A stretch of DNA of 64,000 nt, from positions 46,524 through 110,523 of the IMG/VR virus record IMGVR_UViG_3300000228_000004; one strand, 5' to 3'. Both the position numbers and the translations under genes were made by a program. Shown piece by piece: positions 29,426-63,735 of this stretch (positions within the stretch are counted from its first letter, which is position 1; each line of letters begins with the position of its first letter). This DNA is from a virus. Below the pieces are notes generated by a model that saw only the letters and a program-made list of their open reading frames with translations, searched no databases and was not told the origin of the DNA.

Positions 29426-30010
29426 TTATAATCTCATGAAAATTACTACATTTTCATTATCTGGTTCTACTTCACCTTGGTCATTGACAAAATAAGAAAC
29501 CCCATTTCTTATAGAATACGCTTCCCCGTCTTCACCAGAGTTCATATTAGAATCAACTTTAAACCCATTTCTTGAATAAAGTGTGAAAAGAGGTCCGCTT
29601 ATTTTACCGTTCTTGTCTTGTTGAGCAAAACAATCTAATCTCTTTGCGCCATGTAACTTCGCATTTTGTACGATAGCATCCCCACTTGAACCTTGTGAGC
29701 TGAAAACTGAAACAAGTTCATCCTTATGTGCTATCGCATATCCACTTGAATTATTTGTGCCGACATAACACAACATATTCTCATATTCTTTGGGTGAATA
29801 TACTGATAAAGTTTCAAGTCCTCTTGGGATCTTCCTAGAAATATCATTTTGTTTGATTTTCGATACGATCTTTCCAAATACCCTTCCACTAACTTGAGTG
29901 AATACTGAATCATCTCCCTTCGGTAGTTTCTGACCCTTTTCTAGTTCGACCCCGTGCATCCTTCCCAAATCCCTAAAAACTTCATCAACCACATCTTTAA
30001 ATATCCCCAT
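29426..30010 (-). CDS. hypothetical protein, possible GNAT-like fold
   Basis: ELVSVFS...G..IV..A...GA.RLDCF...L...YSRNGF. Confidence 0.5.
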   Translation of the reverse strand: MGIFKDVVDEVFRDLGRMHGVELEKGQKLPKGDDSVFTQVSGRVFGKIVSKIKQNDISRKIPRGLETLSVYSPKEYENMLCYVGTNNSSGYAIAHKDELVSVFSSQGSSGDAIVQNAKLHGAKRLDCFAQQDKNGKISGPLFTLYSRNGFKVDSNMNSGEDGEAYSIRNGVSYFVNDQGEVEPDNENVVIFMRL

Positions 30011-30725
30011 AATAGCCCCTCTCGTATTTATCTATAACGCATAAAACCAACTGTATTAGACTATTTACTTTTAAGAAATTATCATTATCCTTTTCCCTTG
30101 AGTTCCCTCGGTTTTTTAGATATGTTCTTTTATTGAGCTCTATCATTATACTCTTGACCCTTTTGTCACCAGAAAACTCTTCTGGTAAAATTGAGCCAGA
30201 ATAAGGTTCATTAACGCCGACTGAGTAACCATTTGAAATAATCAACTCACTTATTTCAGAAACGAGTTCTTTCGGTGTATTGTACTCAGTAACCCCTATA
30301 CAAAAATCTATGGGGGACTCTTCAGAATAAAAACTATGGCAATCTACTATACAAACAACGTCGAAATAACACAATGACATGTGTATAGAAGAAAGTAGTG
30401 ATTGATGGTGTGGAATATAAATATCCGAAATTATTCTTGACTTCGTAGCTAAGAATTCACTCACTTTATCATCTCTTACAGTGTTTCCAAATATATCTTG
30501 GGTATAGACTATCCCCATACCCTTTTTATACATATCCTCTTTTTCATCATAGTATCTTTCGACATCACAATAAAACCTTGAAAATTCGAATTGATGTCTC
30601 GTTGAATGCTCATGGGTAAAAAGTTCATCAGTGTACCAGTCAGTTTGAATAGTCATCGCTAGTTCATCAACTAATAATTTCGTGTCAGGGATTGTGTGGG
30701 ATGAATGTGGTATATGCAAAATCAT
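29997..30725 (-). CDS. N-formylglutamate amidohydrolase
   Basis: LHIPH, TDWYTDELF, SRFYCDVER, DCHSF, NEPYSG, MIELNKRTY. Confidence 0.85.
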   Translation of the reverse strand: MILHIPHSSHTIPDTKLLVDELAMTIQTDWYTDELFTHEHSTRHQFEFSRFYCDVERYYDEKEDMYKKGMGIVYTQDIFGNTVRDDKVSEFLATKSRIISDIYIPHHQSLLSSIHMSLCYFDVVCIVDCHSFYSEESPIDFCIGVTEYNTPKELVSEISELIISNGYSVGVNEPYSGSILPEEFSGDKRVKSIMIELNKRTYLKNRGNSREKDNDNFLKVNSLIQLVLCVIDKYERGYYGDI

Positions 30726-30767
30726 ATTATACCTTTCAATTTTATATTTCGGTATTTGAAAACTTAT

Positions 30768-30791
30768 CTGAGTACTCCGAAGAGTACTCAG
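30768..30791. terminator. hairpin, probable terminator
   Basis: ctgagtactc-cgaa-gagtactcag perfect 10-bp stem (TTCG loop on the minus strand) after the porin gene. Confidence 0.6.
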
Positions 30792-30797
30792 TAAATC

Positions 30798-31358
30798 TTA
30801 AAACTTATAGTTCAAACCAAGCGTAACCGTATCGGCTTGAAATTCATCATTTCTAGTATAGTCAACGAATACTTCAGTACCGAAAGCGAACGGAGTACTT
30901 ACACCAGCGCCATAAACAAGACCAGCATTATCACCAAAATCTACATTATCAGTCATAACATCACCGTAACCAACTAGACCATAAACAGATGCGCCATCTA
31001 GATCATATGCAGGTTTTACGAAACCTGTTAATGTAGCAACGTCACCAAAATCATTAGCATCAGTCGAATACCTAACTTCAAGTGCAGTACTAAATCTCTC
31101 ATTTCTGTATGCTACCCATCCAGCTTGCACCCCAATTGTAGTTCTATCAAACCATTTAATGTTATCAAACTCTGTACCAGACGCTAGTGCTGTGTTAAGA
31201 CCGATATAAAAGTCTTGTTCCTGTACAACCACTTCTGATACCTGAATTGTTTCAACTGGCGCGATGTCTCCACCAGCTACTGCGTTTCCCGTGAATAAAA
31301 CAAAAACAGCACCAATTGCTACCAACATTCTTTTAACTTGTGTCATAATGACCCCCAT
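30798..31358 (-). CDS. outer-membrane beta-barrel (porin-family) protein, host-derived
   Basis: Signal peptide, AGGDIAPVE mature N-terminus, amphipathic strands, C-terminal YKF. Confidence 0.85.
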   Translation of the reverse strand: MGVIMTQVKRMLVAIGAVFVLFTGNAVAGGDIAPVETIQVSEVVVQEQDFYIGLNTALASGTEFDNIKWFDRTTIGVQAGWVAYRNERFSTALEVRYSTDANDFGDVATLTGFVKPAYDLDGASVYGLVGYGDVMTDNVDFGDNAGLVYGAGVSTPFAFGTEVFVDYTRNDEFQADTVTLGLNYKF

Positions 31359-31538
31359 TTTTATATTTTTTTACGGGAAACCCAACCTTCCGAGGAGAGG
31401 AACTCTATTCATTAATACATTAATATAAAGTATATGAAGTTATAACTTCATTTACTTAAAATAAACTTAATGACTCGTAACCTTACTTTCTTAAAATAAA
31501 AAACTTAACTCACCGCGTGGGTTACACCACTTATGGCT

Positions 31539-31796
31539 CTATATTACGGGAAGTAGTGTTAATTTTCTTGTTTTAAACGGTAACTTTCTAGTAAGTACCT
31601 TCACTTTCTCTTTCGCCATTGATAAAGAAACTCCTACTCTTCCGGACATATCGAGGTCTTCAGGGTAAATACTGTGCGCTTCACCCGTAACTTGGACACC
31701 ATTTTTTAAAGTTAGTACGCAAATAGTTAATGTATCACCGACGCTGAAATATTTTTCTGATATAATCACTTGCTCAACCATTTCATTAGTCACCAT
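31539..31796 (-). CDS. Gp49/Sf6-66 family (Tad1-like) protein with frameshifted C-terminus
   Basis: TLTICVLTLKNG..VTGE; removing a TACT duplication near 31591-31598 restores ...EKVKVLESYRLKQEN*. Confidence 0.65.
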   Translation of the reverse strand: MVTNEMVEQVIISEKYFSVGDTLTICVLTLKNGVQVTGEAHSIYPEDLDMSGRVGVSLSMAKEKVKVLTRKLPFKTRKLTLLPVI

Positions 31797-31800
31797 GGTA

Positions 31801-33297
31801 TCACTCCCCTAAAGAAATAGCTTCTATTTCTTTTATAAGTGCATTTTTATCTTCCCATATTTTAGGGATTACTGATAACATATTTTCTGAAAACCCAGCA
31901 ACTTCTAAAACATCATGAGAAAGCTTCATTGGGGTCGCGCCACCATACCCCTGAAGGTTCCAAAATAGGAATTTTGTGTTCGGGCTTAATTTTTTGTAAT
32001 CAGTAACCATATCTCTAAAAGGTTTTCCGTGCCCGACTTGATTTTCTTGCATATCGGTGAATATCACAATCTTATCAACTTTGGTTTTTGTTTTTATCAA
32101 ATCAGTCATAGCCCCACCAAGGTCTGTACCGCCACCTTTGGTAATAGTCATTCTGATGAACTCCATAGGTGAACCATCTATTGAAATTTGTCTCGAATTG
32201 TCCGCCCAAAGATAAGCCAATGTTTTCTCTTTATCTAACCCACATAACATAGAAGCCATTAAAGTTTTACCAATCATAAACGGTGAAACTTTTTTGTATT
32301 CACATCCCATTGAACCAGATTCATCTAATAGGATGGCTACAGATTCACCTTCTTCGACAATTGGTATATTTTTTGAAGAGTATATGAACCCTTGTTCTAT
32401 AGCCTTCAAAAGTTTTTTATGTCTAAACATATCAATAGAATTTATGATTCTAACCTCATTATATGCGTACACGAATCTAAAAGGGAGTAATTTAGAATTT
32501 AACACGGCTTTTTCAGATGACAATAATTCACATAACATACCGAATGCTTCATCATCTATACCAGATTCAACCATATTCTTGATGTTCTTCAATGCAGCCA
32601 TATACCCCAATTTTCTTTCTGAAAGCATTGACTTGTAGAGAATAGCTCTTTCTTCACCAGTTGAACTAGCATTAACAGTTTGCGCAGTATTGATATTAGG
32701 GAGTTTGTTCTCTAACGCCATTTTAAACATCAATCGTTGTTCATCGTCTTTAGGTGTTGGGTGGGATATATTCACTAAATTGGAAACTTTCACAGAACCA
32801 TTACCAAAATACTTTTTCAGCTGATACGAGCCCCACTTTGTTTCCAAGGAAATCTTCACTGCTTTTCTTAGAGAGTTCGGGATCATCATATCTGGGTTTC
32901 TTGAATTCCATAACGCGACCATCTCAATCGCGTCATCTGGTCTAAGCATCGTTTTGTCTAACGCGTGCTTCATAAATGTTTCGCCTTTTACATTTTCCGC
33001 TAAAATGGTTCCAATAAAATGAGAAATAGAACGCAAATTACCAACTGTTCTAGCATAAACCATAGATTTGGCTAGAAATTCTGCGTGTTCTGGGTTATTA
33101 GTGATATACCCTTCAATTTTATCTAATCTTTCTTTTTCAGTTTCGTAAAACGAATCAGTTCCATTTAACATAGAATTGAGTATCACGGAAACAACTTCAC
33201 CTTTGAAATTATCCCTAGAGAATCCTGACATACCTGAATAATTCACATCATCACGGTTTTTTGGGTTTGTTTTGATTTTTAAATTGAATTTTGACAT
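31801..33297 (-). CDS. rsr: Ro60/TROVE-domain RNA-binding protein with vWA domain
   Basis: FYE, YAR..GNLRS, RPDD, YQLKKY, HPTP, LGYMAALKN, SKLLPFRF..AY, DESGSM MIDAS, GGTD, IFTDMQ. Confidence 0.93.
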   Translation of the reverse strand: MSKFNLKIKTNPKNRDDVNYSGMSGFSRDNFKGEVVSVILNSMLNGTDSFYETEKERLDKIEGYITNNPEHAEFLAKSMVYARTVGNLRSISHFIGTILAENVKGETFMKHALDKTMLRPDDAIEMVALWNSRNPDMMIPNSLRKAVKISLETKWGSYQLKKYFGNGSVKVSNLVNISHPTPKDDEQRLMFKMALENKLPNINTAQTVNASSTGEERAILYKSMLSERKLGYMAALKNIKNMVESGIDDEAFGMLCELLSSEKAVLNSKLLPFRFVYAYNEVRIINSIDMFRHKKLLKAIEQGFIYSSKNIPIVEEGESVAILLDESGSMGCEYKKVSPFMIGKTLMASMLCGLDKEKTLAYLWADNSRQISIDGSPMEFIRMTITKGGGTDLGGAMTDLIKTKTKVDKIVIFTDMQENQVGHGKPFRDMVTDYKKLSPNTKFLFWNLQGYGGATPMKLSHDVLEVAGFSENMLSVIPKIWEDKNALIKEIEAISLGE

Positions 33298-33358
33298 TAT
33301 TTTACCTTAGTTCTAATTGAGTATTAGACGATTGAAATCGCACCGCATTGTCGGACGA

Positions 33359-33659: not shown

Positions 33660-33661
33660 GG

Positions 33662-33903: not shown

Positions 33904-33926
33904 TTTAAAGAACATAGAGCATATGC

Positions 33927-38513: not shown

Positions 38514-39293
38514 TTAATTTATATCGATTTTTTCAATTTCAGTTGAAGTAACATACCCTGAAAATTTGAATCCCAATTTTTCTATTTCATTCACGAAGGG
38601 GGTATAGTCCATTGAATCATCGTCTTGACCGGAAATTTTAACTATCTTAACTTCTCGCACTTTCACCTCGTGTAATAAAAATTCATCACTACTCCAAACT
38701 TTACTGGTCTTTTTTGAGATTGACGCCCTTATTTTTTCTATGAGTTCCTTCGTGATAATTTTTTTAGATTCATCCATATACCACTTCATAAATTGAGCCT
38801 TTCCCGTACCGTCGAGTTTTTTTGAGGCTGACCCAATACTAAATCGGTCTTCCACACCGAAATATTCCATCATCTTTTTATTCATGGGTACAGTGAACTC
38901 ATTATTTATCACATAATCCTTTTCAGTCATAATTGGATTAAGCCATTTATAACCGCTCCTTGATAATTGAGAATTGAAATCGGTACCAGCATCAAACGAA
39001 GATACACCAGAAACAGATACTAAGAACCGAGCTTGTCTTCTGGCGCCAGTAGAAATACCCTCGCCACCACGCTTGAAAACTGAAATAGTTTTCTTTTGAC
39101 CAATTAAGCCCTTTAAAGTTATCAATCCTTCTATATCGGTCACATGGTACGCTAATTCGACTGGTTTATTGAAATCTCTCATTATAGTCTGAGTTAGTGG
39201 TAAAAAGCCATGAGACGCCATTTCCCATTCTTTCATCGCTGATTTATTGTCTATATATCTTTCAAATACGGTATTTATGGCTTGTCTGAACAT
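38514..39293 (-). CDS. hypothetical protein, possible ADP-ribosyltransferase fold
   Basis: AYHVT...ISVF...DEFLL spacing; N-terminal MFRQAINTVFE motif. Confidence 0.45.
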   Translation of the reverse strand: MFRQAINTVFERYIDNKSAMKEWEMASHGFLPLTQTIMRDFNKPVELAYHVTDIEGLITLKGLIGQKKTISVFKRGGEGISTGARRQARFLVSVSGVSSFDAGTDFNSQLSRSGYKWLNPIMTEKDYVINNEFTVPMNKKMMEYFGVEDRFSIGSASKKLDGTGKAQFMKWYMDESKKIITKELIEKIRASISKKTSKVWSSDEFLLHEVKVREVKIVKISGQDDDSMDYTPFVNEIEKLGFKFSGYVTSTEIEKIDIN

Positions 39294-40302: not shown

Positions 40303-41089
40303 TCATTCCTCTATTGTCAATTCACTTAGTCCCCTAGAAGGAAATATTCCAGCGTATTTGATATCATTTTTTTCACAGAAAGACCGTATTTTACCATTGT
40401 CTGAATTCAAAGAATATACACTATCGATTTTGAATTTAGTTAAAATGACCTCATTGTATTTCATTTCTGCCGCATTATCCAAGAATTTTTGAAGTTCTTT
40501 GTAACCTCCGCCATCAATCCATTTTTCTATTTTTTTGAAATACGACTTTTGAAATTCTAATTGTTGCTTGACAGGAAGATTTTTTATTTTTTGTAAAACC
40601 AATTCTTCTGTTTGATCCTGTGGTGAAAAATCAACCCCAAATTCTTTAAAAATAGAAGTTATGACACCATCAATGGAAAATGTGAGTTTGAACTTACTAG
40701 CTCTTTCAGGTGAATCGTGGTTTATCCACCTTACACCATTTTCATCGACAGTAGTCCAAATATCACTTTTCCCCGTATTACTTCTGTTCCAGTAAGAACG
40801 GTTAGGCAGTTTGGTTGGGACGGTAATCGAGCCAACTCAGGACCTCCAACGGTGAAAGTAGATATTTGCGCATTTGTTTTAGAAATATTTTTGAGAGTTT
40901 CGAGGTGAACCTCATTCGTAAGATGAAAACTCTTGACTCCTTCTTGAGAATACCCTAATCTTTTCATCATCGGTAAAAAAGAGGAATTGCTCTATTAGAA
41001 ATCAAAGTATTATAGCCCCTTTTCATACCAGCGATTTTACTTAACTCTTCTTTTAAATATTGAATACTCTTTATAGCTTCTTTAATCAA
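40303..41089 (-). pseudogene. paralogue of 38514-39293, two single-base homopolymer frameshifts
   Basis: TTG-IKEAIKSIQ...AIPL(fs)PMMKRLG...SFHLT...QISTF...(fs)SDIWT...RWIN...YNEVIL. Confidence 0.65.
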
Positions 41090-41170
41090 TGAGTAACCTT
41101 TCTGCGTTGTTTCTTTTGGGTATTTAACGATTTGAGAATCCATGGGGATAAGTTATATTACATTCAATTG

Positions 41171-43144: not shown

Positions 43145-43480
43145 TTATTCATACTCACCATAAATATCACCGACTTCTATGATGGCGTTATAATCATCGC
43201 TAGAATTTTCTTGCGAAAGTGAATATTGGAACTCACTCCCTATATTTGTTTCGAGAGATTTTTTTATAAAATTAAAATCTCCCTTATTTTCCATACCTAC
43301 AGTGATCACCCAAGCATTATTCCAATAAGCAGGAGATACATCAATAACTTCTACGCCTTTCACCCCTTTCAGGGATCGTTTGATCCGTTTCACCATTACA
43401 TTGATACTGGATTTCGCACCCATTTCGACGAAATGGGATGATTTTAATTTTTCTACTATTTCTTTCAACATCGTTTTCAC
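43145..43480 (-). CDS. hypothetical protein with N-terminal MLKEIVE motif
   Basis: ORF with GAGG RBS. Confidence 0.55.
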   Translation of the reverse strand: MKTMLKEIVEKLKSSHFVEMGAKSSINVMVKRIKRSLKGVKGVEVIDVSPAYWNNAWVITVGMENKGDFNFIKKSLETNIGSEFQYSLSQENSSDDYNAIIEVGDIYGEYE

Positions 43481-44245: not shown

Positions 44246-44278
44246 ATTATACCGTAACTCAGCTTAATTGTCGCTTAA
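44246..44278 (-). promoter_or_regulatory. early promoter
   Basis: TTAAGCGACAATTAAGCTGAGTTACGGTATAAT; TTAA is the stop of the upstream gene. Confidence 0.75.
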
Positions 44279-44754
44279 TTACCAAAATCAGCCTTGATAT
44301 GCTCCACAGTTTCATTTTCAAAACATATAGTGAAATCAACCATTGGTAAATTAGAAATATCAATATCTCCAGCATTATAAGATAATGTAAAATGTGGTTT
44401 GTATTCACTGAAGTCACTCACGAACCCATATTTTTCAACAAGTTCTGAATTCCTGTGAAAAAGTTCTTGTGAATGTATTTCAACAACAAGTGCTTCACCA
44501 TCTTTTCCGAATTTTGAATAATTAGTCGGGATTGCTTCTATTGAATATTCCTTAGACTCTATTTCACCGAAAAAAGGTTTTTTAGAGTATATAAGGGTAC
44601 AGTGTTGATCATAATTGAATTCAATGCCGTTAAGGTACTTGTTTGTAAATTCTTCAAGTTTGTCTATTGAAGTTTGTTTCATTTTTAATGCGATATATAC
44701 GCCTCGCGTATATAGTAAATCAGAAGAAAGTTTTTCGATAATTTCTCTAATCAT
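44275..44754 (-). CDS. 2H phosphoesterase, T4 gp57B/Acb1-like
   Basis: G.YIA, HCTLIYS and YKPHFTLSY twin HxT motifs. Confidence 0.8.
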   Translation of the reverse strand: MIREIIEKLSSDLLYTRGVYIALKMKQTSIDKLEEFTNKYLNGIEFNYDQHCTLIYSKKPFFGEIESKEYSIEAIPTNYSKFGKDGEALVVEIHSQELFHRNSELVEKYGFVSDFSEYKPHFTLSYNAGDIDISNLPMVDFTICFENETVEHIKADFGN

Positions 44755-45494: not shown

Positions 45495-47240
45495 TTATCC
45501 TTCACATGCGACGCAAGTAGAACGGTCTATTTTAACTTTCGTTTTTCCATTCAGGGTTCTTATATAATATAAAGACTCTATATCAGGGTCTCTGAATGCC
45601 GCATCGTGAACTTCTGAAATTTCCTCTTCTAACGCATCGTGCGGGAAGTAAAGGTTCGTTGATTGACCTTGACCCCCACCAGATTTATTCATATTTCTTT
45701 GTCTGTCTCCGGACATCTTCAATATAGAATAAGGACTAATCTCAAACGCGGTTCTAAAAATGTCTTTTTCATGCTGTGTTAGCCAACTTTCACCTTGAAC
45801 TGAACCCTTGTCTTCCGCTATGCGCTCAATTACTTCAGGTGAATTCATACCTCTCTTTTTCATCAACTCTAGGAAAGGGGGATTAATCCTGAAAACTGTT
45901 CCGCCTGCAGTGTCTTGTTCATAAACATTAGCGAATACTGGTTCTATTCCTTGTGAAATCCCGCCCATAATTATAGAAGTTGACATCGTCGGAGGAAATG
46001 CTAATCTATGGCTGAATCTTTCGCCATAACCAACCATCCACTCTGGTTCACCGACTTCTCTTGCTAGCCACTGCGAAACTTCTAATGTTCTGTCATCTAA
46101 TTGTTTGACCAAAAGTTGATTAAACATAATTGAAGACAAATCACCAAATACCCAACCCTCTTGTTGATAATATGTGGCTTCACCGAGAATACCTAACCCA
46201 ATTGCTCTTGATTTTTCAGTGAAATTAACTACCCTTTCAAACCCCTTCTCCCCTTTAGCCTTTATTAACATATCGGAAATAATAGCATCTAAAAACACCG
46301 TTGCTATTTCTACTGCTTTAGTATCTTTCCACTCATTATATTTTGATACATTCATTGAAGCCAAAACACAAGTAAACGAATGATCTTCATCACTCATCAA
46401 TTGAATCTCACAGCATAGGTTACTACCCTTAATCAAGAACCCTTTATCTTTATACATTCTTGGTCGGCTTCTATTTGCTTTATCTATGAAAAAGAAATAT
46501 CCTTTACCTTTGATGAGCTTTATTCTCAACATTTTCTTCCAAATTCTATCAGCGCTTTCTGGGTCAGTGTTGAACAAGTCTTCAAATTCATCAGTTATAT
46601 TCCAACCAATATTCCAACCAGCATCATCTGAAAGTATTTGGTCAGCGACTTCATCAAAATCTGGGTGAAGTGGGTCTATGTACAAACCAGCTGCACCCCT
46701 CCGACTTGATCCCTGAGACACATCTTTCATATCTTGAACAATACCTGCCGCAGGTTGCATGACCCCGTTAGCAGTCCCACCAGTAGATATTGGTGAACCG
46801 CGATGCCTAGCATCACCTATAACAGTAGAAGTACCGTACCCCCTCTGGGTAAGTTGTGACATTTCTAATCTTGCTTCATACCAACTCCTAATAGAGTCAC
46901 CTAGATGCGTACCACTACAGGATACTGGGTGACCCCTATCATTACCAAAGTTGATTAATGTCGGTGAAGCTGGTGACACCCAACCTTTCCAAATAACTTG
47001 GAAAAACGCGTCTTCCCAATTTTCAAAACCCCAATCATCTGGGATTGGTACTGTCGTTAATTCTGCTGCTCTTTTAGCTTGTCTCCTGTACATACCAAGA
47101 GGAGTTTCGTCTGGTGCTAAGTATCTTTGTTCTGTTGCCAATTGAAACCCAGCGGTGGTGTACCATTCTGGAGCCTCTCCTTGTTCTTGTAAAGTTTTTC
47201 TCAGGTTTGAAAGTTTTTCATATTTTGTTTCTATTGACAT
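45495..47240 (-). CDS. nrdA: class I ribonucleotide reductase alpha subunit
   Basis: PVSC, SNLCCEI, PPTMSTS, SLYYIR, C-terminal CVACEG. Confidence 0.93.
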   Translation of the reverse strand: MSIETKYEKLSNLRKTLQEQGEAPEWYTTAGFQLATEQRYLAPDETPLGMYRRQAKRAAELTTVPIPDDWGFENWEDAFFQVIWKGWVSPASPTLINFGNDRGHPVSCSGTHLGDSIRSWYEARLEMSQLTQRGYGTSTVIGDARHRGSPISTGGTANGVMQPAAGIVQDMKDVSQGSSRRGAAGLYIDPLHPDFDEVADQILSDDAGWNIGWNITDEFEDLFNTDPESADRIWKKMLRIKLIKGKGYFFFIDKANRSRPRMYKDKGFLIKGSNLCCEIQLMSDEDHSFTCVLASMNVSKYNEWKDTKAVEIATVFLDAIISDMLIKAKGEKGFERVVNFTEKSRAIGLGILGEATYYQQEGWVFGDLSSIMFNQLLVKQLDDRTLEVSQWLAREVGEPEWMVGYGERFSHRLAFPPTMSTSIIMGGISQGIEPVFANVYEQDTAGGTVFRINPPFLELMKKRGMNSPEVIERIAEDKGSVQGESWLTQHEKDIFRTAFEISPYSILKMSGDRQRNMNKSGGGQGQSTNLYFPHDALEEEISEVHDAAFRDPDIESLYYIRTLNGKTKVKIDRSTCVACEG

Positions 47241-47255: not shown

Positions 47256-48308
47256 TTAGTTATACGAAAGTTCTGTTTTAGGCTTTGATAAAAATGGTAA
47301 CCTAGAAAGATTATTTGTTTTCCAAGATCGTCTATAGCTTGATGTACCAGAAACAAAGAAATCATGCATCTTTATTGAGTTTGCCCCTTTATAAAACCAT
47401 TTTGAAATAGGGTTGTCAACTACATCATATATCGTTTTAAACCCACATTCAGTGAGCGTCGAGTCTGCTCTAGAGCGTATGAAAGATTTCAAATGAGAAG
47501 GCGTTATATCATTGATAGAAGCTTCACCTCTGAAGACATAATCTATTACGGCATCTTCGTGAGAAATAATCTCGCGCACAAGGGTATTAACATTTTCTTC
47601 ATGCTCTTTGAACGGAAAACTTTCCCCGAACTCTTCTATATAGGTGTTATGTAAATAAGAAGCAAATATTCCGTGAAGAGTCTCATCTTGAACAACAAAA
47701 TCAACACCAGTAACTGTATTGGTGATAAGGTTATGTCCGTTTGCTTGAAATGATTTCAACATTGCAAAGTTACTAAATAATAAAACTTGTTCTATCATAG
47801 AAACGGTCACGAGTGAAAGTGCCTTATTTTTATCTAAATTCTTCGTGATTTCATTCAAGAAAGTCAATTTACTTTTTAACACAGATATGGTTTGTTGATT
47901 TCTAGCAGTCATTTCTGGTTCAATATTCATTTCATCAGACATTTTTTGATAAAAGAACGCGTGAACTGATTTCTCCATAGAAGAAATCGCGGAACAAGCA
48001 CCCTCTATTTCAGAGTGGGGGAACCAACTCGCTATTGTTTCCCAAACCATACCAACCTTTTGTTCTATTTCAACAAAAAGATCTAGTGTCACGCTGGTCA
48101 AATTAAACTGCGCTTTAGACATGTTATGCCTATAATCGTGGATGTCTTTTTCAATTGGAATTTCTTGTTCAGTCCAAAATACATCTTGTTGTTTTTTTCT
48201 TATTTCGTTCGCTAATGGGTAAAGGTAGTCACCGAATAAACTCGGTGTTTCGATTTGAAGTTTTTTATCTCTTCCTACAGTATAGTCACTGTTTTTGTCT
48301 ATAATCAT
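47256..48308 (-). CDS. nrdB: class I ribonucleotide reductase beta subunit
   Basis: FWTEQEI, EKSVHAFFY, EQVLLFSNF, DETLH, DFF. Confidence 0.93.
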   Translation of the reverse strand: MIIDKNSDYTVGRDKKLQIETPSLFGDYLYPLANEIRKKQQDVFWTEQEIPIEKDIHDYRHNMSKAQFNLTSVTLDLFVEIEQKVGMVWETIASWFPHSEIEGACSAISSMEKSVHAFFYQKMSDEMNIEPEMTARNQQTISVLKSKLTFLNEITKNLDKNKALSLVTVSMIEQVLLFSNFAMLKSFQANGHNLITNTVTGVDFVVQDETLHGIFASYLHNTYIEEFGESFPFKEHEENVNTLVREIISHEDAVIDYVFRGEASINDITPSHLKSFIRSRADSTLTECGFKTIYDVVDNPISKWFYKGANSIKMHDFFVSGTSSYRRSWKTNNLSRLPFLSKPKTELSYN

Positions 48309-53508: not shown

Positions 53509-53781
53509 TTACTTCCCTTTCTTAGGAATAATTTTTATTTCAAAAAGCAGAACTACCTGACTTTTTCTTGCGTACCTAGCTGATACGCGGCTTTCATCAA
53601 CTCTTCTACCGCATACATTTCTTCCAAGTTTATATTAGAAATTATTTCCAATAAATCTTCTATATCAGCATCACCGAACTGTTCATCGATTGTTCTCAAA
53701 CATAATTCTATTTCGTTCATAAAGTACCCCTGTTACATTTTCAACTATTTAAGCCCAATAACATGGTGTGTCCTGTTATCG

Positions 53782-54129
53782 TTAGATATATTTCTCAATG
53801 TCCAAATTTTCAAACCCGAATATATCACCGTCACTATTATTAGAAAAAACGATTTTTTGAATTTCACCCTTTAAAACATCATTCAAGATTCCTTCAATTA
53901 TATCAGCTATTCTTTTTTTATCCTTGATAAATGAACCCTTATATTTTGTTTTAAATATTGCTTGAGTCAACCACTTTGGTATATTTTCAGATGATCTATA
54001 AACTGAAGGGTTGTCAATCATATCCTGTATTTCAGCGGATTCATAAGTGAAAGTTCTATTCTTTCTTGACCCAGTGACCTGTAAAATTATCTCATTATTC
54101 TCTATTGATTCTACTATTTCTCTTAACAT
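53782..54129 (-). CDS. hypothetical protein with N-terminal MLREIVE motif
   Basis: ORF with AGGA RBS. Confidence 0.55.
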   Translation of the reverse strand: MLREIVESIENNEIILQVTGSRKNRTFTYESAEIQDMIDNPSVYRSSENIPKWLTQAIFKTKYKGSFIKDKKRIADIIEGILNDVLKGEIQKIVFSNNSDGDIFGFENLDIEKYI

Positions 54130-56168: not shown

Positions 56169-56582
56169 TCATTCCATTGACAATTTATATGACAATGTGT
56201 CTATATCGCCTTGTATATCTTCCAATACCCCGTTTAAAGAAAGTAAATCACCGCTAGAAGTTTTGTCAAGCATAAATGAGACCTTTGTTCTAAGACCAGA
56301 CAATTGTTTTATGAGTTCTTCTTTTTTATACCCAATTTTAAAATTGACATTCACTTCACCAGAAGATATCGTGAAACCCATACCCAAATAGGTTTCTATT
56401 AAGGTATCTACATCACCTTGTATGTCTTCATAAAATTCACCTAGAGCAACATGCTCTGAGTATGAACTTGTAAATAAATGGTATAAGTGTGTTTGTTCAA
56501 CGAACCATAACATTTCTAATGCCAAATTTTCAAATTCACCCTCAGTACTTTTATCAAACCCCTCTAAAATCTCTTTTAACAT
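56169..56582 (-). CDS. Dps/ferritin-like protein (DUF5856-like)
   Basis: HLYHL.T.SYSEHVALGEFYE......D.LIE.Y.G, C-terminal YKL. Confidence 0.75.
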   Translation of the reverse strand: MLKEILEGFDKSTEGEFENLALEMLWFVEQTHLYHLFTSSYSEHVALGEFYEDIQGDVDTLIETYLGMGFTISSGEVNVNFKIGYKKEELIKQLSGLRTKVSFMLDKTSSGDLLSLNGVLEDIQGDIDTLSYKLSME

Positions 56583-56594: not shown

Positions 56595-56837
56595 TTAATA
56601 ATTTTTAAACACTATATTTTTGTTAATCCAGCGTTTATCAGTTTCATATACCCCAGCGTTTCCACCCACCACGAAATTCATTTTAATGATGTTACCCAAT
56701 ATCCTGTAATCAGAAAGAACAACATTATCACCGAACTTGTGTTTCAAGAATGCTACTATCTCTTCAGATGTGACATCAGCCACGGAATCATCATCTATTC
56801 CGATTACCCTTTCTAATATTTCTCGTATCAACTTCAT
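56595..56837 (-). CDS. hypothetical protein with LIREILE motif
   Basis: Tightly packed ORF. Confidence 0.5.
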   Translation of the reverse strand: MKLIREILERVIGIDDDSVADVTSEEIVAFLKHKFGDNVVLSDYRILGNIIKMNFVVGGNAGVYETDKRWINKNIVFKNY

Positions 56838-57230
56838 TTACCCCAGAACTAACATTTTTTCACCATTTTTGATTTTATAATCATTGGGTGTTTTCTTATT
56901 GAGTTGCATGATAGTCACGAAGGTCATAGTCTTAAACTCATTGTTGACGGACACTAAGCAATTTTGATACCCGTTAGCGTCTTGGTAAATTAAATGGTAT
57001 TTTCCATCTTGTATTTCAATCGGACGCTTCTTAAGAAACAACTTCACTATTCCGATAAATTCTTTACAGAAAAACCCGTCATCTCTTTCTTTTTCAGAAG
57101 GAGGTCTTGGGTCGTCTAAGTGTGATGTTCTACCTATAATCCAAGTACCCAATTTAAACATAGCACCGTTTCCAGTAGAGCAATCTGGAGAAACCCTTTC
57201 TAGAACTTTTAAAACAGCTTCTCTTATCAT
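56838..57230 (-). CDS. hypothetical protein with MIREAV motif
   Basis: ORF with strong GGAGG RBS. Confidence 0.55.
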   Translation of the reverse strand: MIREAVLKVLERVSPDCSTGNGAMFKLGTWIIGRTSHLDDPRPPSEKERDDGFFCKEFIGIVKLFLKKRPIEIQDGKYHLIYQDANGYQNCLVSVNNEFKTMTFVTIMQLNKKTPNDYKIKNGEKMLVLG

Positions 57231-57537
57231 ACTCCCTCCTCAATTTTTCATATATTATATACCATTACATTTGTTTAGAATACCAGTCTAAAGTTTTCTT
57301 AGAAATTTTTGCGCCGAGTTTCTTCAATTCTTTGTTAAGCTCATCAAACCCCATTGTTTGCGCTATAAAATAATCATCATCAGCTCTTCCGATATCAAAT
57401 TCACCAAATTCCCCGTAACCAACATATTAATTTTCACCATCATTGCCTTTGAATGGGAGGGTATCCCATTCAAGTTCTCTCTTAATTTCAATTTCCTCGT
57501 TAATACTCTTTACTATTTCTCTCAACATGTTTTATCC

Positions 57538-58086
57538 TTAATTTTTATAAATTATCACGGATTCAACATTTTCGTCTTTCCCGTACTTAACAGTATTTAA
57601 TTTTGAAACTTCCACGGTTCTTATGACTTTGTCATCTGGTACCAATCTTTGTTCACCGCCAGCATGCCTTTCTTTATTGCGTTTTAAAGCAGTTTCAGGT
57701 TCCACATCAACAAGTAGTACCACAACTTTCATTCCGGCATCTTTAGCCCACTTGAACTTGTTAGAAGATGATTCTATATTGTTACCAGTCCCCATCTGAA
57801 CTATTGTCTGTTTGTTTTTAAATGCGTCCAATAATTCTTTTTTAGACCTTGCGGTTGCTCTCGAAACTTGTTTCCTCGGGTCAGTGTTAAATTCCTTTCC
57901 AAATTCAGCAGTGTATTCGTCTATATCTATAAGCTTCAACCCTTTTAGGTATTTGTTGAAAACGAAATTTTTACCAGCACCAGCTCCGCCGACCATGAAA
58001 ATGAAAGTAGGTTCTTTTTCAGCGAGTTCTTTCAAATCACTTATTTGAACTTTGGATATAGCTTCCCTTATATATACGCGTCTCAT
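57538..58086 (-). CDS. P-loop kinase (AAA_33/zeta-toxin/PNK-like)
   Basis: GGAGAGKN, IDID, ALKRNKER. Confidence 0.75.
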   Translation of the reverse strand: MRRVYIREAISKVQISDLKELAEKEPTFIFMVGGAGAGKNFVFNKYLKGLKLIDIDEYTAEFGKEFNTDPRKQVSRATARSKKELLDAFKNKQTIVQMGTGNNIESSSNKFKWAKDAGMKVVVLLVDVEPETALKRNKERHAGGEQRLVPDDKVIRTVEVSKLNTVKYGKDENVESVIIYKN

Positions 58087-58110: not shown

Positions 58111-59016
58111 TTATCGTGGAACCCATCTATTTCTGAAGACAAAATAGTAAACTGAGTTTTTTTCATTTTTTCTAATCTTATCGGTTTCCCATTTTTTAAT
58201 ACCATATATCACTTCACCAATTTCAATGTTCTTTATCTTCGATGTAAATTCATCATATAAACCGCTATTTTTTAAAAGTTCAATGTCTTCATCACTATAA
58301 AAATTCTCAATTAATGTAGTCCTAACTAACGCTTCTCTAAAGATTGATTTCTTAATAGAAGAAACCGAAATAATTTTAAATCTGTCATTTAGAGCCTTTA
58401 TCGTAGAAAACGCCAAATGTATTACTGTCCCACCGACCCAAGGAAATGACAAACCTACGAAAACACCAGAAGCGAGTAATGACAACATTTTTAAACCCTT
58501 GTCACCGCCAAAAATATTCTCAAGTGAGAAGTCACCTAATAAAGCGCCAATAATATCTGAAAAATCGAAATCATATTCTATATCACCAGTGAATGACATA
58601 TTCAACCAGATGAAAACTAGAATACCCCCTACTGCGAACCCACCCAATCTCTTCATTTTGGGATTCGCTTGTAACCAAGTATCAAGTTCTTTTAATTTTT
58701 CAGTAGTCCACTTAGTGACTTTATTTTTAGAGGCAAATTTAAAAATTTCATTTAAAAGTGTTTTGTATGCTCTATACCCTTCTTTCACTGCTTTGAATAA
58801 AATATTGAAAGACCATTTTATTGAATTAAAAAATTTTAATACAAGCTTCTCTTTGAATAACTTTAGTAAATCCTTAAATCCAACATTTAATTTAGACGCA
58901 AGGTCAGTTATGAAGTCGATTTGATTCTTAAATTTATCAAATAACCCTTCATTGGCTTGTCCCAATAACATAGATTCTATGAATGATTCAAATTCTACGA
59001 TATTTACTTGGGTCAT
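58111..59016 (-). CDS. hypothetical membrane protein
   Basis: Two to three hydrophobic segments. Confidence 0.55.
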   Translation of the reverse strand: MTQVNIVEFESFIESMLLGQANEGLFDKFKNQIDFITDLASKLNVGFKDLLKLFKEKLVLKFFNSIKWSFNILFKAVKEGYRAYKTLLNEIFKFASKNKVTKWTTEKLKELDTWLQANPKMKRLGGFAVGGILVFIWLNMSFTGDIEYDFDFSDIIGALLGDFSLENIFGGDKGLKMLSLLASGVFVGLSFPWVGGTVIHLAFSTIKALNDRFKIISVSSIKKSIFREALVRTTLIENFYSDEDIELLKNSGLYDEFTSKIKNIEIGEVIYGIKKWETDKIRKNEKNSVYYFVFRNRWVPR

Positions 59017-60617
59017 TTTTGACCACCTATTAATTCAACAACTTTTCTTAACATATATACACTATTTCTTCTGAATGACTCGCCCTGAGTATAAGTTTTA
59101 ATAAGTTCATCGTAGAACGGGTAAACTTCTTTGGGCGTGTTTAATTTAAAATAATTCACATCACTGAGGTTTCTAATAACCTTAGTAGCCGACTCATCAT
59201 CATCAGACCTTTTCACTTCTTCAACTTGAACATCCAAATTTCTTTCTAGTTGTTTTCTATATTCAACTACTCTATCTGACCCAGCTAATACCGTATTGAT
59301 ATTATTTGAAGTTTTATTTATGATTGTAATAAGATTTCCTGTTTGCGCTTGAATAACTTCAACTTCCGGAAAAACCGCTTTTATCATATTTGTTCTTAAA
59401 GCCAGAGTTGCTTTAGTCTCTTTGTTTGTGACTAAAGAAACCGTGAGGGTATCACTCTTAGATAATGCTTGTTCGAACATTTTCTTATGCCCATTAGTGA
59501 ACACCCTAAACTTCCCTATCACCAACGCCCCATTGTTTCCAGGAAGCATCCTCATAATCATCGACTTTGAAGTGAGTTGTATGTCATCTCTGATATTTAG
59601 TTCAGTTTTCTTTTTATGGGAAAAATCTAAATGTAAATCTTTGTAAACCACTTGAGACAAGTCTTTAAGTACATTCGGGAATTTTTGCGTTAGATTTAAG
59701 TTTTTGATAATTTCAGATGCGCTCTCTCTGACCTTTAACCAATATTGGTCTTCATCATTGATTTCCATTTTGTATTTCATTTTAATACTAAACCTAAGTT
59801 CTTTATCATATTGGTCATCTTGTACTATCTTTATGATATCAGAATTCCCTATTGCTGAAGATAAATGTATTACAACCCCTTCTTCTTTAATTGAACCATA
59901 TAGGGATGGGAGTTGCATAAAGAAGTTTTTGGCTAGTTCCCAAAACCCGTATGGCGGTAATCCCTTAAATGAGTTTTCGAAATCTTTGAAATATTCTTTT
60001 GCTCTTTGATTAAGCCCCTTCGGCATATCAATGAGTTTTCCTGAAAAAATAAGTTCTGGTAAATTCAACCCTAGAAGTTTCGCCCATTTTTCCCTATCAG
60101 ACATATCTAAACCGTTCGTCTTGATATCAATTTTACCGTTATTAATAGATACATTCGTAACTTTACCATGCCCAATGAGAACTAATTGCCTAAGTTTTGT
60201 ATATTGGCGAGTCAAAGTTGGCTTGTTCATTAGAAATTCAACAAAGAATTCTGTATTCTTCGGGACTGATTTCCAAGACTTGAAATTGCCAGCCACATGG
60301 TCTATAACTGATTTGTATTGAGACACACCAACAGTTGTATCAAAATCACCTTGGGCGTGAGCGTACTCTGTGCCATATATAATATTCCCTTTATATGAAA
60401 CAATAAACATCTTCCACCATTGAGTGTCATCCCAATCTGAGCCAGTTCTAAGTAAGCTTAGTTTCGTACCATCATATTTACCATAAATGTCAACTGATTG
60501 GTTGATAAGCTGAGTTGCTGTTTTTTCATCGGTCACTACCTTATCAACATTCTTAATGCTGATATCTAAGTACGATGCCTCATTCTCTAAAATAGTATTT
60601 ATACTTTCTCGTATCAC
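59013..60617 (-). CDS. RNA-ligase-like covalent nucleotidyltransferase fused to HxGH-type cytidylyl/adenylyltransferase
   Basis: KYDG, FVEF, EEGVV and IIKIV motifs; then GKFRVFTNGH...AGSDR...SATK. The likely start is GTG 60617 after a GGAGG RBS (MIRESINTILE). Confidence 0.7.
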   Translation of the reverse strand: MIRESINTILENEASYLDISIKNVDKVVTDEKTATQLINQSVDIYGKYDGTKLSLLRTGSDWDDTQWWKMFIVSYKGNIIYGTEYAHAQGDFDTTVGVSQYKSVIDHVAGNFKSWKSVPKNTEFFVEFLMNKPTLTRQYTKLRQLVLIGHGKVTNVSINNGKIDIKTNGLDMSDREKWAKLLGLNLPELIFSGKLIDMPKGLNQRAKEYFKDFENSFKGLPPYGFWELAKNFFMQLPSLYGSIKEEGVVIHLSSAIGNSDIIKIVQDDQYDKELRFSIKMKYKMEINDEDQYWLKVRESASEIIKNLNLTQKFPNVLKDLSQVVYKDLHLDFSHKKKTELNIRDDIQLTSKSMIMRMLPGNNGALVIGKFRVFTNGHKKMFEQALSKSDTLTVSLVTNKETKATLALRTNMIKAVFPEVEVIQAQTGNLITIINKTSNNINTVLAGSDRVVEYRKQLERNLDVQVEEVKRSDDDESATKVIRNLSDVNYFKLNTPKEVYPFYDELIKTYTQGESFRRNSVYMLRKVVELIGGQK

Positions 60618-60706
60618 TAATAACCCCTCCTGAACCGAACCCAGATTCATTTTTTCTTTTTATTATTTAAGTTATACTTTTTATCAGATTCACGGCTATC
60701 TGGGTG

Positions 60707-62011
60707 TTAGCGGATTATAATATAGTCTGATGAAGTGTTTGTTAGGTTCTTACTGTACCTATATAACCACTCAAAGAATTTTTCCTGACCATGATCTTTT
60801 AAAGGGGCAATTAAAAACCCGTGTAAATACTTAACCAAATTAAATGCTTTGGCTTTATCTTCATCACCCAACTCATTGTAACTTTCTAGTGCGTACTCAA
60901 AATTGACTGGTTTTTTAGCCATATTAAAATTGTATTTATTGAAACAAGATTTTAGGAGCTTCTCGAACTCTCTATCGTTCTTTTTCTTATCAATGTCTAT
61001 ATCTGCACCAAAAGATTTTAGTTTCGAAACTAAAGATTGCTTTCCTATCGCGCCTAAGCTATAATTTGAGCCGACTTCTTTTCCCTCTGCGTATATGTTC
61101 AAATTATCCGCTTTATACCCAACTCTTGCACCAAACCCACTTTCAGTCCATGCTATAAAATTTTTATATGACTTCAAGTTTATATCGATCCAAGTCACTC
61201 TGAAATTTTTATTAATTTCTATACCTGAAGAAATAGTTTCGACTTTTGCTTCAGTACCTGAAACTTGCTTCAATGAAATAGGGAGAACATTTTTTTCCTT
61301 CATAGAGTTCGCTAAGAAAGCATTCAAAATTTGTATATCATCTGCTTCTTTGTTGAAGTTTTTTATAAATCCTCTAAACTCCCCCAAGAAGCTTTCTTTT
61401 ATAAGCCAAACATCCCCAGGATTCCAGTTATCTTTATTCAAGCCTGTTAATTTTCTAGCTAATTCATAACACCCTATTGTTTCGACACCTCTCTGTGGTT
61501 CACCATAATACCCAGAAGTGGGGTTTATACCGAACTTTATCAAAGCCCGTAATTGCGTAACTGCACTCGTATAATACAATGTCTTATAAAAAAGTTTCTC
61601 TTTCTCTGATAAAACATTAATTACTTCTTCTTCAGAGACTTCCCCATTTAAAAAGATAAATAAAGATATTTTTTCCTTTAAATCAGTAAGAAATGAAGTG
61701 TTTCCTTTCCCTTTCTCACTGTTGTGGTTAAACAACGAGTTCATTACTGTTCTAGAACCATTTAGGCGTATGACTCTTCCGCTGACATCTTTCAAAAAAA
61801 TAGAAGATATATCTTTAGTACCCCCAATTTCATAAATGTGTTTAGTGTCTTCTTCGACCCACTTAATAAAAGTGTCGCCCCCTTTATAATCACTTAAAAA
61901 TTTTATATTCTTTTGTAAGTTCGGTTTTATATATATCTCAGAACCAGTGCCGTATTTTTCTTTCCAGATATTGGCTTCATCAATCGCGGATAAAATAGCT
62001 TCCCTAATCAC
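60707..62011 (-). CDS. PD-(D/E)xK nuclease-like protein
   Basis: DNWNPGDVW...PISLKQ motif; N-terminal MIREAIL. Confidence 0.55.
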   Translation of the reverse strand: MIREAILSAIDEANIWKEKYGTGSEIYIKPNLQKNIKFLSDYKGGDTFIKWVEEDTKHIYEIGGTKDISSIFLKDVSGRVIRLNGSRTVMNSLFNHNSEKGKGNTSFLTDLKEKISLFIFLNGEVSEEEVINVLSEKEKLFYKTLYYTSAVTQLRALIKFGINPTSGYYGEPQRGVETIGCYELARKLTGLNKDNWNPGDVWLIKESFLGEFRGFIKNFNKEADDIQILNAFLANSMKEKNVLPISLKQVSGTEAKVETISSGIEINKNFRVTWIDINLKSYKNFIAWTESGFGARVGYKADNLNIYAEGKEVGSNYSLGAIGKQSLVSKLKSFGADIDIDKKKNDREFEKLLKSCFNKYNFNMAKKPVNFEYALESYNELGDEDKAKAFNLVKYLHGFLIAPLKDHGQEKFFEWLYRYSKNLTNTSSDYIIIR

Positions 62012-63204
62012 AATATTCTCCTTAATGCTTCGGTAAAGATTGAGTCTTTATCTCTGTCCGGGAAATTACTATAGTACGCGTCGATAATTTTTTGGTTTTG
62101 TTTCACACCAAAGGATTTACAATAATACGCGTAACCAGCGATTTTCACTTCAAAATCGCCTTTTGGGTCACCCCTTTCAATCACCTGAGCAAACTTATCA
62201 AAAAGTTTCTCTTCATATCTTAAAGTAGTGTGTTGTATTTGAGTTTTATCTAGGTAAGAATGCATAAGCTCTATTATACCAACGAATGAACCGAATTTTT
62301 CTACATCTGTTGGGCTATCTTCTAGTCTCCCAAAAGCAAGTTTATATATTTCTTTCACTATTGTGACATAAACATCGGTCTTTGAATCTCTGGCTTTATA
62401 TACTTGTTTACCATCTAAGAATATTGGTTCACCGTTCTCGTTATACATTGGGTCATAAGCAGTTCTTATACCCCTTCCGACAGAAAACTTCAACATTCTT
62501 GGTAATGTATCAGTCTTGTTGCCTGAAATTTTTATTTTGTCTGGTGTTGAAGAAGGTGTTGCTATAACTATATCATCTCTTATAGAAGCCCCACCAATAA
62601 TAGACTGAATAAGGTATTTATGGTGAAGAGCTTTGATACCAGCTTTTGCGTCATCAAAACTTGAACTATGTGAAAACTTTGCCCACTGTGATGGTGTACC
62701 TATGTCATCTTCCATTTCAAGAAATTCCCAGTCTACTTGCGCAGCAACTATCAAACCGCCACCAAAATCAACTCTAAACACTGAATTAATTTGTTCGCCT
62801 ATTGAAGAAACGGTCTCTTTGTTTGAACCGATATATTCGACCCCTTTAAGTATAGTTTCCCCTTCTAACTTATCCAATAAGCGCCAAACATTTCCTTTCG
62901 TGTCATCAGGAACAATGATATCTAAGTCACCAGCATGTGTTTTATATTTGACAATTTCTTCGTCAGGTATATCACCATTAAAGATAAAAGAAGTCGAACC
63001 ATTGAATTGAAGCCCATTTTCTATGTTTTTCTCATTCACCCACAGTGGTTTGCCGTAAGCTTTCTTATACAAAACATTAATCTCTTTAAAAATAGAAATA
63101 AACTTCTTGGTAAAATTACTTCTCCCAATATCTTTTATTGGGATTTTTTCTGCTCTTAATTGTTCACCTGACCGCTTATTTATACCAGTTACATTTCCAC
63201 CCAT
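62008..63204 (-). CDS. Pol-beta superfamily nucleotidyltransferase
   Basis: MGGN, NGST, GDLDIIV, QVDWE, KALHH. Confidence 0.75.
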   Translation of the reverse strand: MGGNVTGINKRSGEQLRAEKIPIKDIGRSNFTKKFISIFKEINVLYKKAYGKPLWVNEKNIENGLQFNGSTSFIFNGDIPDEEIVKYKTHAGDLDIIVPDDTKGNVWRLLDKLEGETILKGVEYIGSNKETVSSIGEQINSVFRVDFGGGLIVAAQVDWEFLEMEDDIGTPSQWAKFSHSSSFDDAKAGIKALHHKYLIQSIIGGASIRDDIVIATPSSTPDKIKISGNKTDTLPRMLKFSVGRGIRTAYDPMYNENGEPIFLDGKQVYKARDSKTDVYVTIVKEIYKLAFGRLEDSPTDVEKFGSFVGIIELMHSYLDKTQIQHTTLRYEEKLFDKFAQVIERGDPKGDFEVKIAGYAYYCKSFGVKQNQKIIDAYYSNFPDRDKDSIFTEALRRIL

Positions 63205-63491
63205 CAGTAACCCCTCATATTTCTATATTCTGATCTTTCTCTGCCCAAGAAAACTTTTGGTGAAGTTCTATTGAACTCCCTTAATGCATTAAATGCGTCT
63301 TTGAATATTTTATTTGCGGAGATATATTCTCGTGAAGTTCTTATTTCTTCAGGCACCAATCCGCCTTTATTTTTACCAGCAAGCGTGAGCAACTTTGATT
63401 CAGCATCTTCTACACCCTGTTCCAACTTTTCTTTTTCAGTTTTCCAGTTGTTGTACGGGATATCAACATTTTCAATTATTTCTCTGAGCAT
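63204..63491 (-). CDS. hypothetical protein with MLREIIE motif
   Basis: Tightly packed ORF. Confidence 0.55.
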   Translation of the reverse strand: MLREIIENVDIPYNNWKTEKEKLEQGVEDAESKLLTLAGKNKGGLVPEEIRTSREYISANKIFKDAFNALREFNRTSPKVFLGRERSEYRNMRGY

Positions 63492-63492
63492 T

Positions 63493-63735
63493 TTATTTCA
63501 CATCTTTCAGATTGAATTTATTCTGTATTTTTTCTATTTCAACATTAAATGGTGAATTTAGTTTTTTCTCTATATACATAAACTTCTTGTCTGAAGTCAC
63601 GATTACATCAGTTAGCTTCCCAAGTTCAAATACCGCTTCTTTATGGTACGGTAATGTACATACCTCACCATCCCAATTATAAATGGTCTTATCAATCATT
63701 TCATCACTGAGTTTTCTTATTGCTTCTCTTAACAT
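63493..63735 (-). CDS. hypothetical protein with MLREAI motif
   Basis: ORF below an early promoter. Confidence 0.55.
   Translation of the reverse strand: MLREAIRKLSDEMIDKTIYNWDGEVCTLPYHKEAVFELGKLTDVIVTSDKKFMYIEKKLNSPFNVEIEKIQNKFNLKDVK

Follow-up and report, generated by a model that had tools for sequence, protein, structure and literature searches.

In phages of the T-even group, the internal proteins that counter host defences are diverse and evolve fast, and they bear a conserved N-terminal capsid-targeting sequence (CTS) (PMC3012670, PMC9026906). The CTS of T4 comprises the first 10 residues, of which 4 and 7 are important for targeting and 8 and 10 for processing (PMC9026906, PMC3012670); IPII and IPIII start MKTYQEFIAEA and Alt starts MELITELFDE. 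The T4 protease gp21 cleaves after L/I-x-E, with propeptides down to 7 residues, and trims Alt at both ends (PMC9026906). Many head-internal proteins of the giant phages phiKZ, 201phi2-1 and SPN3US are likewise cleaved after Glu by a gp21-related protease, and large sets of packaged proteins are ejected into the host (PMC9026906). Cleavage in these phages follows S/A-x-E, and they are not known to use a common address peptide at the N-terminus. Here we analyse a 64,000-nucleotide stretch (the window; positions 46,524 to 110,523 of IMGVR_UViG_3300000228_000004), which makes up the right-hand part of an IMG/VR viral contig of 110,523 bp (G000; a linear contig with a CheckV completeness of ~71%), and a short N-terminal leader shared by many of its otherwise unrelated proteins.

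With looser forms included (genome positions 3479 and 36717; window positions 39293, 41089, 57528 and 58086), ~20 of roughly 165 G000 genes, about one gene in eight, start M-[LI]-[RK]-E-[IA]-[IVL]. Fourteen of these carriers lie inside the window (Table 1) and 6 outside it (genome positions 1005, 3479, 36373, 36717, 36907 and 37092), and the strict core begins 14 called genes. A six-frame scan of G000 found the motif nearly confined to the coding strand and to gene starts. The tightest form of the core is found at 11 called starts, where the frequency of this 5-mer inside proteins predicts 0.03 (Poisson P ~5e-25), and at no gene start of T4 or of G008 and G009, two related T4-like genomes. A first-pass annotation of the window had noticed the leader on about 15 unrelated proteins, and every N-terminus that it listed is indeed found on the minus strand at the start given; the total now stands at ~20. 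Some of the starts needed refinement: 60617 and 62011 are GTG codons with good ribosome-binding sites, 43480 moves to an ATG at 43471, the genes at 56837 and 58086 read MKLIREILE and MRRVYIREAISK, and 41089 and 57528 belong to decayed genes. One member that had been listed as weak, GIFKDVVDE at 30010, was dropped, as it has a background score (-32 or -15) on a matrix built from 32 leaders, where true leaders score 13 to 23.

The leader signal lies at the level of the protein and not of the DNA. Codons at the conserved residues vary (Leu TTA/TTG/CTT/CTC/CTA; Arg AGA/CGA/AGG; Ile ATA/ATT/ATC), information content is 3-periodic with high second codon positions and low wobble positions, and the Shine-Dalgarno signal is the only conserved feature of the DNA upstream of leader genes. 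A nucleotide-level signal, the rival that the first-pass annotation had named, was ruled out on these three grounds, whether as a translation enhancer or as a RegA-type operator. Hidden paralogy among the carriers was ruled out as well, since their leader-trimmed bodies have no mutual BLAST similarity and carry different Pfam domains. The amino acid pattern reaches residue 11, with hydrophobic residues at 2, 5, 6 and 9, Glu at 4, often Glu at 7, and acidic residues at 10-12, and this is the pattern of a predicted amphipathic helix.

Comparison with relatives places the leader in the position of a T4-type CTS. The leader is shared by G001 (140.6 kb) and G002, whose proteins have ~70% identity to those of G000, with at least 13 carrier genes in G001 and 5 in 13.5 kb of G002; it was not found in the more distant relatives G003, G004, CP220, Va1, G008 and G009. 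Two related T4-like contigs, G010 and G011, have 9 and 7 unrelated open reading frames (ORFs) that start M[KIQG][TK]FREWLxE, a plain T4-type CTS, and two of these ORFs stand in a tail/head cluster (L058:4930-5468), with the gene for the S77 protease ~3 kb downstream of them. In three independent families (a small protein, the Acb1-like protein and the P-loop kinase) the N-terminal slot holds the G000-type leader, a T4-type CTS, or nothing, the T4-type sequences in uncultured-phage homologues being MKTFKQYIAE, MKTFTQFITEAKV and MKTFREWLRE.

The small family joins a 61-residue G000 protein (MIKEIVEN...) and a 55-residue G001 protein (MLKEILEKLNEE-TEYQKFF...) to G010/G011 proteins that are 54-76% identical (E 1e-10 to 6e-18) and start MGKFREWLRE and MKTFREWLRE. 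In their alignment M-LKEIL sits under MKT-FREWL and under MKT-YQEFI of T4 IPII; beyond the leader, the match of T4 IPII to this family is too weak to use (E 0.035). Acb1 homologues align at 42-49% identity, some with G000-type starts (P0013, P0016 and P0018; the starts of this type read MIREAIHAMFEE, MIREAIKIVKEK or MIKEAIERVFEE), some with a T4-type CTS (MKTFKQYIAESE in P0003, MKTFKEYILEIE in P0007 and P0008, and P0012; MIKFKQYISE is among the starts), and others with neither. Kinase homologues divide in the same manner into those of the G000 type (MLREILESIKSD in P0021, MIRELILETKEP, and P0029), those of the T4 type (MKTFTQFITEAKV in P0033, P0024, P0026, P0041 and P0048, with starts including MNFREFLTE and MKRFREYMTE) and those with no leader.

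On balance we favour reading the leader as a lineage-specific, divergent variant of the T4 CTS, with the consensus M-[LI]-[RK]-E-[IA]-[IVL]-(E)-x-[IVL]-x-E. Because it sits exactly where related phages carry the T4 capsid-loading tag, the phage probably packs the leader proteins into its head, the Acb1-like anti-defence enzyme among them. The leader would form a short amphipathic helix at the free end of the protein and would dock that protein on the scaffold core while the prohead assembles, possibly by mimicking the N-terminus of the scaffold protein itself. A prohead protease of the T4 family would then cut after the Glu of one [LIV]-x-E motif, and the freed protein would remain in the head and exit with the DNA at the next infection. 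We infer a fast-changing cargo of ~20 mostly small proteins together with enzymes, namely the Acb1-like phosphodiesterase, the P-loop kinase, the ligase-nucleotidyltransferase fusion and the DUF5856 protein. Purified virions of S-CREM2, a T4-like cyanophage, have been found to contain a cytidylyltransferase and a kinase (PMC10665884).

The leader resembles the T4 CTS in being a short N-terminal peptide on unrelated, fast-evolving proteins that is followed by an (L/I)-x-E protease-type motif. It differs in being 2 residues shorter at the N-terminus, in having aliphatic instead of aromatic residues and Glu often at 7 instead of 10, in the number and kind of its carriers (~20 including enzymes, compared with 4-5 in T4), and in the lack of a canonical late promoter. 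The packaged sets of the giant phages were found by proteomics, whereas the set described here is predicted. Encapsulin cargo-loading peptides are also short terminal peptides that dock unrelated enzymes inside an HK97-fold shell, but they have no sequence similarity to the leader and stay uncleaved, and encapsulins are not phage heads. New here are the divergent version of the tag, the scale of its use, the enzyme carriers including the Acb1-like protein, the C-terminal copies, and the swapping of tag versions on orthologues.

A comparison with scaffold proteins, which the first-pass annotation had called for, suggests how such a tag may act. T4 gp22 begins MLKEQLIAEAQK. In 69 related loci, which have 53 distinct N-termini at this place, the ORF between the protease and capsid genes starts with MLEKLFESLDEKVFT or something very similar, two of these scaffold N-termini reading MLKE[LI]FESLD. 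Scored with the leader matrix, the start of the scaffold at the gp22 position (MLEKLFESLDEK) comes out ahead of every other ORF start in 33 of the 53 distinct loci, with a scaffold median of -1.3 against a background of -19.3 (sd 6.5), and no other head-module gene scores high. Leader and gp22 N-terminus share the pattern M, L, charged pair, two hydrophobic residues, E, x, hydrophobic, acidic, but the charge pair is mostly reversed in scaffolds (E-K vs R/K-E). Across dozens of uncultured T4-like phages (loci L032-L111) the N-terminus of the gp22-position scaffold is strongly conserved as MLEKLFESLDEKVFT.ELKESLE.

Motifs of the prohead-protease type are also present. All leaders have [LI]-x-E at residues 2-4, and a second [LIV]-x-E, of the T4 prohead-protease type, ends at residues 7-12 in 28 of 32 leaders compared with 60 of 320 (19%) other N-termini. 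The copies of the leader away from the N-terminus, which had also been pointed out in the first pass, are real in all three cases, and both C-terminal copies have counterparts in the G001 orthologues, where the 398-residue protein ends ...ESLIREALRRVK and the ligase-cytidylyltransferase enzyme ends GGILRKAISSLHGK. For the 398-residue protein, the alignment with homologues from Campylobacter phages and Vibrio phage Va1 breaks off ~14 residues before its tail. The conserved tails would fit a docking peptide active at either end, for which T4 Alt, with removable peptides at both ends, provides a loose precedent (PMC9026906).

Several observations weigh against capsid targeting. A packaged set of at least 20 proteins, several of them ordinary cytoplasmic enzymes, would be large for a T4-sized head. 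To our knowledge, C-terminal copies have no tested precedent as targeting signals. Direct likeness to T4 is limited to a core of hydrophobic-[Q/R/K]-E-hydrophobic-hydrophobic (T4 YQEFI; here LREIV and IREAI). The T4 CTS scores -18 on the leader matrix, which is background, and T4 gp22 only -6.4; it is through the intermediate sequences that the leader is tied to T4. The scaffold N-termini form one homologous family, so that their likeness counts as a single observation, in about the top 1%. The Acb1-like gene overlaps the stop codon of the gene for dCMP deaminase, which T4 counts among its early genes. No canonical late promoter, TATAAATA, lies within 80 nt upstream of any G000 gene, leader genes included. 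Finally, neither a capsid gene (gp23) nor an S77 prohead protease gene was found on the contigs G000-G004, nor a scaffold gene on the incomplete contigs G000, G001 and G002, so that the docking partner and the protease have to be assumed from relatives. The same head-gene searches do detect capsid or protease in T4, CP220, Va1 and related contigs. When viral contigs were scanned with the capsid protein of the clade, none of those retrieved came from the G001 or G002 metagenomes and none was leader-enriched, and walking outward from the left-end gene of G000 through viral and metagenome contigs reached only relatives at 47% identity or less. The T4-like capsid-targeting leader proposed in the first pass is partly supported: the three families, the scaffold N-terminus and the [LIV]-x-E motifs speak for it, and the absence of head genes and of the TATAAATA promoter speaks against it.

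The objection from promoters is weak but real, because T4 ipII and ipIII likewise have no proximal late promoter. An exact TATAAATA precedes 8 of the 16 T4-type-leader ORFs of G010/G011 and is present at 53 of 72 capsid genes of the wider clade. In G000 and G001, genome-wide, TTAAATA has a sharp positional peak, 18-29 nt ahead of the start codon (20 observed vs 1.1 expected); the positional hits are all TTAAATA and never ATAAATA. This heptamer precedes 6 of 27 leader genes vs 18 of 344 others (p = 0.005, ~5-fold) and may be this lineage's variant of the late promoter. A discriminative k-mer search upstream of leader genes left TTAAATA as the only lead to survive multiple testing, and a sigma-70 promoter scan found sites no commoner than in shuffles. 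Examples of TTAAATA in the window lie upstream of 47256-48308 and 53553-53720.

An alternative, which we consider unlikely though deserving of attention, is that the leader is a terminal docking motif for a non-capsid partner such as the N-domain of host ClpX, the tagged proteins being ClpXP substrates, decoys, or adaptors through which proteins of the host would be brought to degradation. Copies at either end, with the C-terminal ones conserved in two orthologue pairs, fit a position-independent short linear motif, and the leader genes have no canonical late promoters and stand among early-type genes. The ClpX-tethering motif of UmuD is LREIV, the same as in MLREIV, and like the leader the ClpX tethers of UmuD (in its N-terminal arm) and SspB (ALRVVK-COOH) are short, follow L-R-x-[IV]-[VK] and occur at either protein end. 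The ClpX-binding tail of SspB is RGGRPALRVVK-COOH (PMC3983244), and the tail of the G001 398-residue protein, ...EALRRVK-COOH, is nearly identical to it over a match of five residues only. This likeness falls short of the leader, which is conserved over ~11 residues (hydrophobic at 9, acidic at 11). Furthermore, the SspB tail is reportedly bound by ClpX as a beta strand, whereas the leader is predicted to be helical. Docking to a non-capsid partner also leaves unexplained both the T4-type CTS in the homologue slot and the likeness to the scaffold N-terminus. In its most specific form, a position-independent tether to the host ClpX N-domain that would make the ~20 proteins ClpXP adaptors, decoys or timed substrates and so let the phage hijack proteolysis in the host with a whole set of its proteins, this alternative appears very improbable.

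The leader is a portable add-on, as homologues and one close orthologue lack it. The CP220 and Va1 homologues of the ligase-cytidylyltransferase enzyme have neither the N-terminal leader nor the C-terminal tail, and the G001 Acb1 orthologue is without the first 18 residues, while P0016, a close database relative, keeps the leader. In an AlphaFold2 model of the Acb1-like protein (mean predicted local distance difference test score, pLDDT, 88.6) the domain from residue ~19 scores >90, and residues 1-10 (pLDDT ~52) are modelled in a low-confidence helix (2-12) outside the domain. The set of carriers turns over quickly, since many have no G001 orthologue, one is broken (40303-41143) and one is a stub (57427-57528). 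Leader genes are accessory, their content differing between G000 and G001, and T-even internal-protein genes are likewise accessory and turning over (PMC3012670).

Such turnover would also be seen if the shared first codons were a by-product of gene gain, through fusion behind a start region or cassette shuffling of the promoter-early stem-loop (PeSL) type, and the peptide itself had no function. T4-type phages do shuffle ORFans at conserved regulatory cassettes (PMC2839356), and the clustering of the accessory leader genes and the existence of the stub and of the broken copy agree with this. However, upstream nucleotides are unconserved and synonymous codons free while the amino acids are fixed, replacements within the leader are conservative (I/L/V, R/K), the leader is kept in orthologues at ~70% identity and in database homologues at 43-57%, and C-terminal copies present in both orthologues cannot be remnants of a start region. 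We judge this explanation to be quite improbable. Least probable of all is that a modifying or processing enzyme recognises the leader, as in ribosomally synthesized and post-translationally modified peptides, with one maturase for many precursors: G002 does have a radical-SAM ORF (G002:C1:6225-6464, open frame 225 aa) ~1 kb downstream of its leader cluster, but a search for the radical-SAM family alone found no such gene on the incomplete contigs G000, G001, G010 and G011, the bodies behind the tag are complete enzymes that reach 534 aa, and no candidate maturase co-occurs with the leader.

If the leader is indeed a capsid-targeting variant, it would provide a way to list, from sequence only, the proteins that are pre-loaded in the head and delivered with the DNA. 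The Acb1-like enzyme would then destroy the signals of cyclic oligonucleotide-based antiphage signalling systems (CBASS) from the first moment of infection, and a dozen small leader proteins would be good anti-defence candidates. The T4 CTS would not be fixed; different T4-type lineages would use different versions, whose exchange for one another on orthologous proteins is what makes them recognisable, and the likeness to the scaffold N-terminus would offer a testable mechanism for the tag. As for the cargo identities that the first-pass annotation had suggested, Pfam and domain matches agree with the Acb1-like protein, the kinase and the nucleotidyltransferase fusion; no domains resembling ADP-ribosyltransferases were found among the carriers, and its "nuclease" is only a weak look-alike.

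Table 1. Leader genes and related features of the window, by window coordinates (aa, amino acids).
Feature	Position	Strand	Leader, start or copy	Remarks
194-aa gene, non-member	29426..30010	-	MGIFKDVVDE	
259-aa gene	38514..39293	-	MFRQAINTVFER (degenerate leader)	Matrix score 6.1, >99th percentile of non-leader starts
Broken leader gene, three ORF fragments	40303..41143	-	LIKEAIKS at 41089	
108-aa leader gene	43145..43471	-	MLKEIVEKLKSS	True ATG at 43471
159-aa Acb1-like 2H phosphoesterase	44275..44754	-	MIREIIEKLSSD	Pfam domain from residue 17
115-aa leader gene	53782..54129	-	MLREIVESIENNE	No G001 orthologue
137-aa DUF5856 protein	56169..56582	-	MLKEILEGFDKS	Pfam domain from residue 35
80-aa leader gene	56595..56837	-	MKLIREILERV	Register as in T4 CTS MKTYQEFIAEA
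130-aa leader gene	56838..57230	-	MIREAVLKVLER	Orthologues start MIRELILSIQER (G001) and MIREAIQIIQER (G002)
33-aa stub ORF	57427..57528	-	MLREIVKSINEE (perfect leader)	
182-aa P-loop kinase (Zeta_toxin/AAA_33)	57538..58086	-	MRRVYIREAISK	G001 orthologue starts MILNEILDE
301-aa protein	58111..59016	-	Internal copy KKSIFREALVRTTL at residue ~225 (~58320-58350)	No G001 orthologue
KxDG ligase-like + cytidylyltransferase-like fusion, 534 aa (also given as 545 aa)	59013..60617	-	N-terminal leader (M)IRESINTILENE; C-terminal copy ...YMLRKVVELIGGQK (~59016-59057)	GTG at 60617 behind AGGAGG
434-aa protein	60707..62011	-	(M)IREAILSAIDE	GTG start
398-aa protein	62008..63204	-	C-terminal copy ...DSIFTEALRRIL (~62011-62043)	No N-terminal leader
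95-aa leader gene	63204..63491	-	MLREIIENVDIP	No G001 orthologue
80-aa leader gene	63493..63735	-	MLREAIRKLSDE	G001 orthologue starts MIREAILKVSD

Among the features of Table 1, the broken gene is intact in G001 as a 255-residue protein starting MIREVLKKVQEE, of which the 259-residue protein is a distant paralogue, and the 33-residue stub is probably a truncated leader gene. The DUF5856 protein has the PHROG label starvation-inducible regulator, and a word-indexed search returned no near homologues of it. The 301-residue protein looks membrane-bound by eye, judging from its hydrophobic stretches. The central part of the 434-residue protein is common to cyanophage proteins (T4-like gene cluster 419), and its resemblance to restriction endonucleases is a weak lead only. 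Several of the Acb1 homologues P0003, P0005-P0008 and P0012 are extended at the C-terminus by a long tail, which reads GTL[AV]GKALK and continues into a stretch rich in Lys, Glu and Asp; the bearers mostly have a T4-type CTS (P0005, as recorded, has none), and the Acb1-like protein of G000 has no such tail. In T4 itself, a minus-strand ORF of 54 residues with its start at 19130 begins MKTFKEFIKEDMVAGD, like the CTS of IPII and IPIII.

The 398-residue protein (MGGNVTG...), the 434-residue protein and the ligase-cytidylyltransferase fusion form a cassette (59013-63204) that recurs, complete or incomplete and with several paralogues, in Va1, Campylobacter phages, G008 and G009. In cyanophage S-ShM2 the cassette is unfused and far diverged. 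The alignment of the cyanophage cytidyltransferase with the fusion enzyme is confined to the nucleotide-binding motif and too weak to use (E 0.029).

Genes of G000 lie on the minus strand almost throughout and include replication and nucleotide-metabolism genes of the T4 type (gp32-like single-stranded-DNA-binding protein, helicases, topoisomerase II, RNA ligases, thymidylate synthase, ribonucleotide reductase and GroEL/ES). Its relatives at the protein level are Campylobacter T4-like phages (the CP220 group) and Vibrio phage Va1, and a DNA-level search of a phage collection gave no match. G000 (window 63788-64000), the right end of G001 and the left end of G002 each stop ~0.3-2 kb past the outermost leader gene, which is transcribed inward on all three contigs; the stops shared by these independent contigs suggest a genome end, a terminal repeat or an assembly-breaking hypervariable stretch. 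Two G000 proteins are also on record, as exact copies, on a contig of 143,667 bp, which implies that public data contain a longer assembly of this phage.

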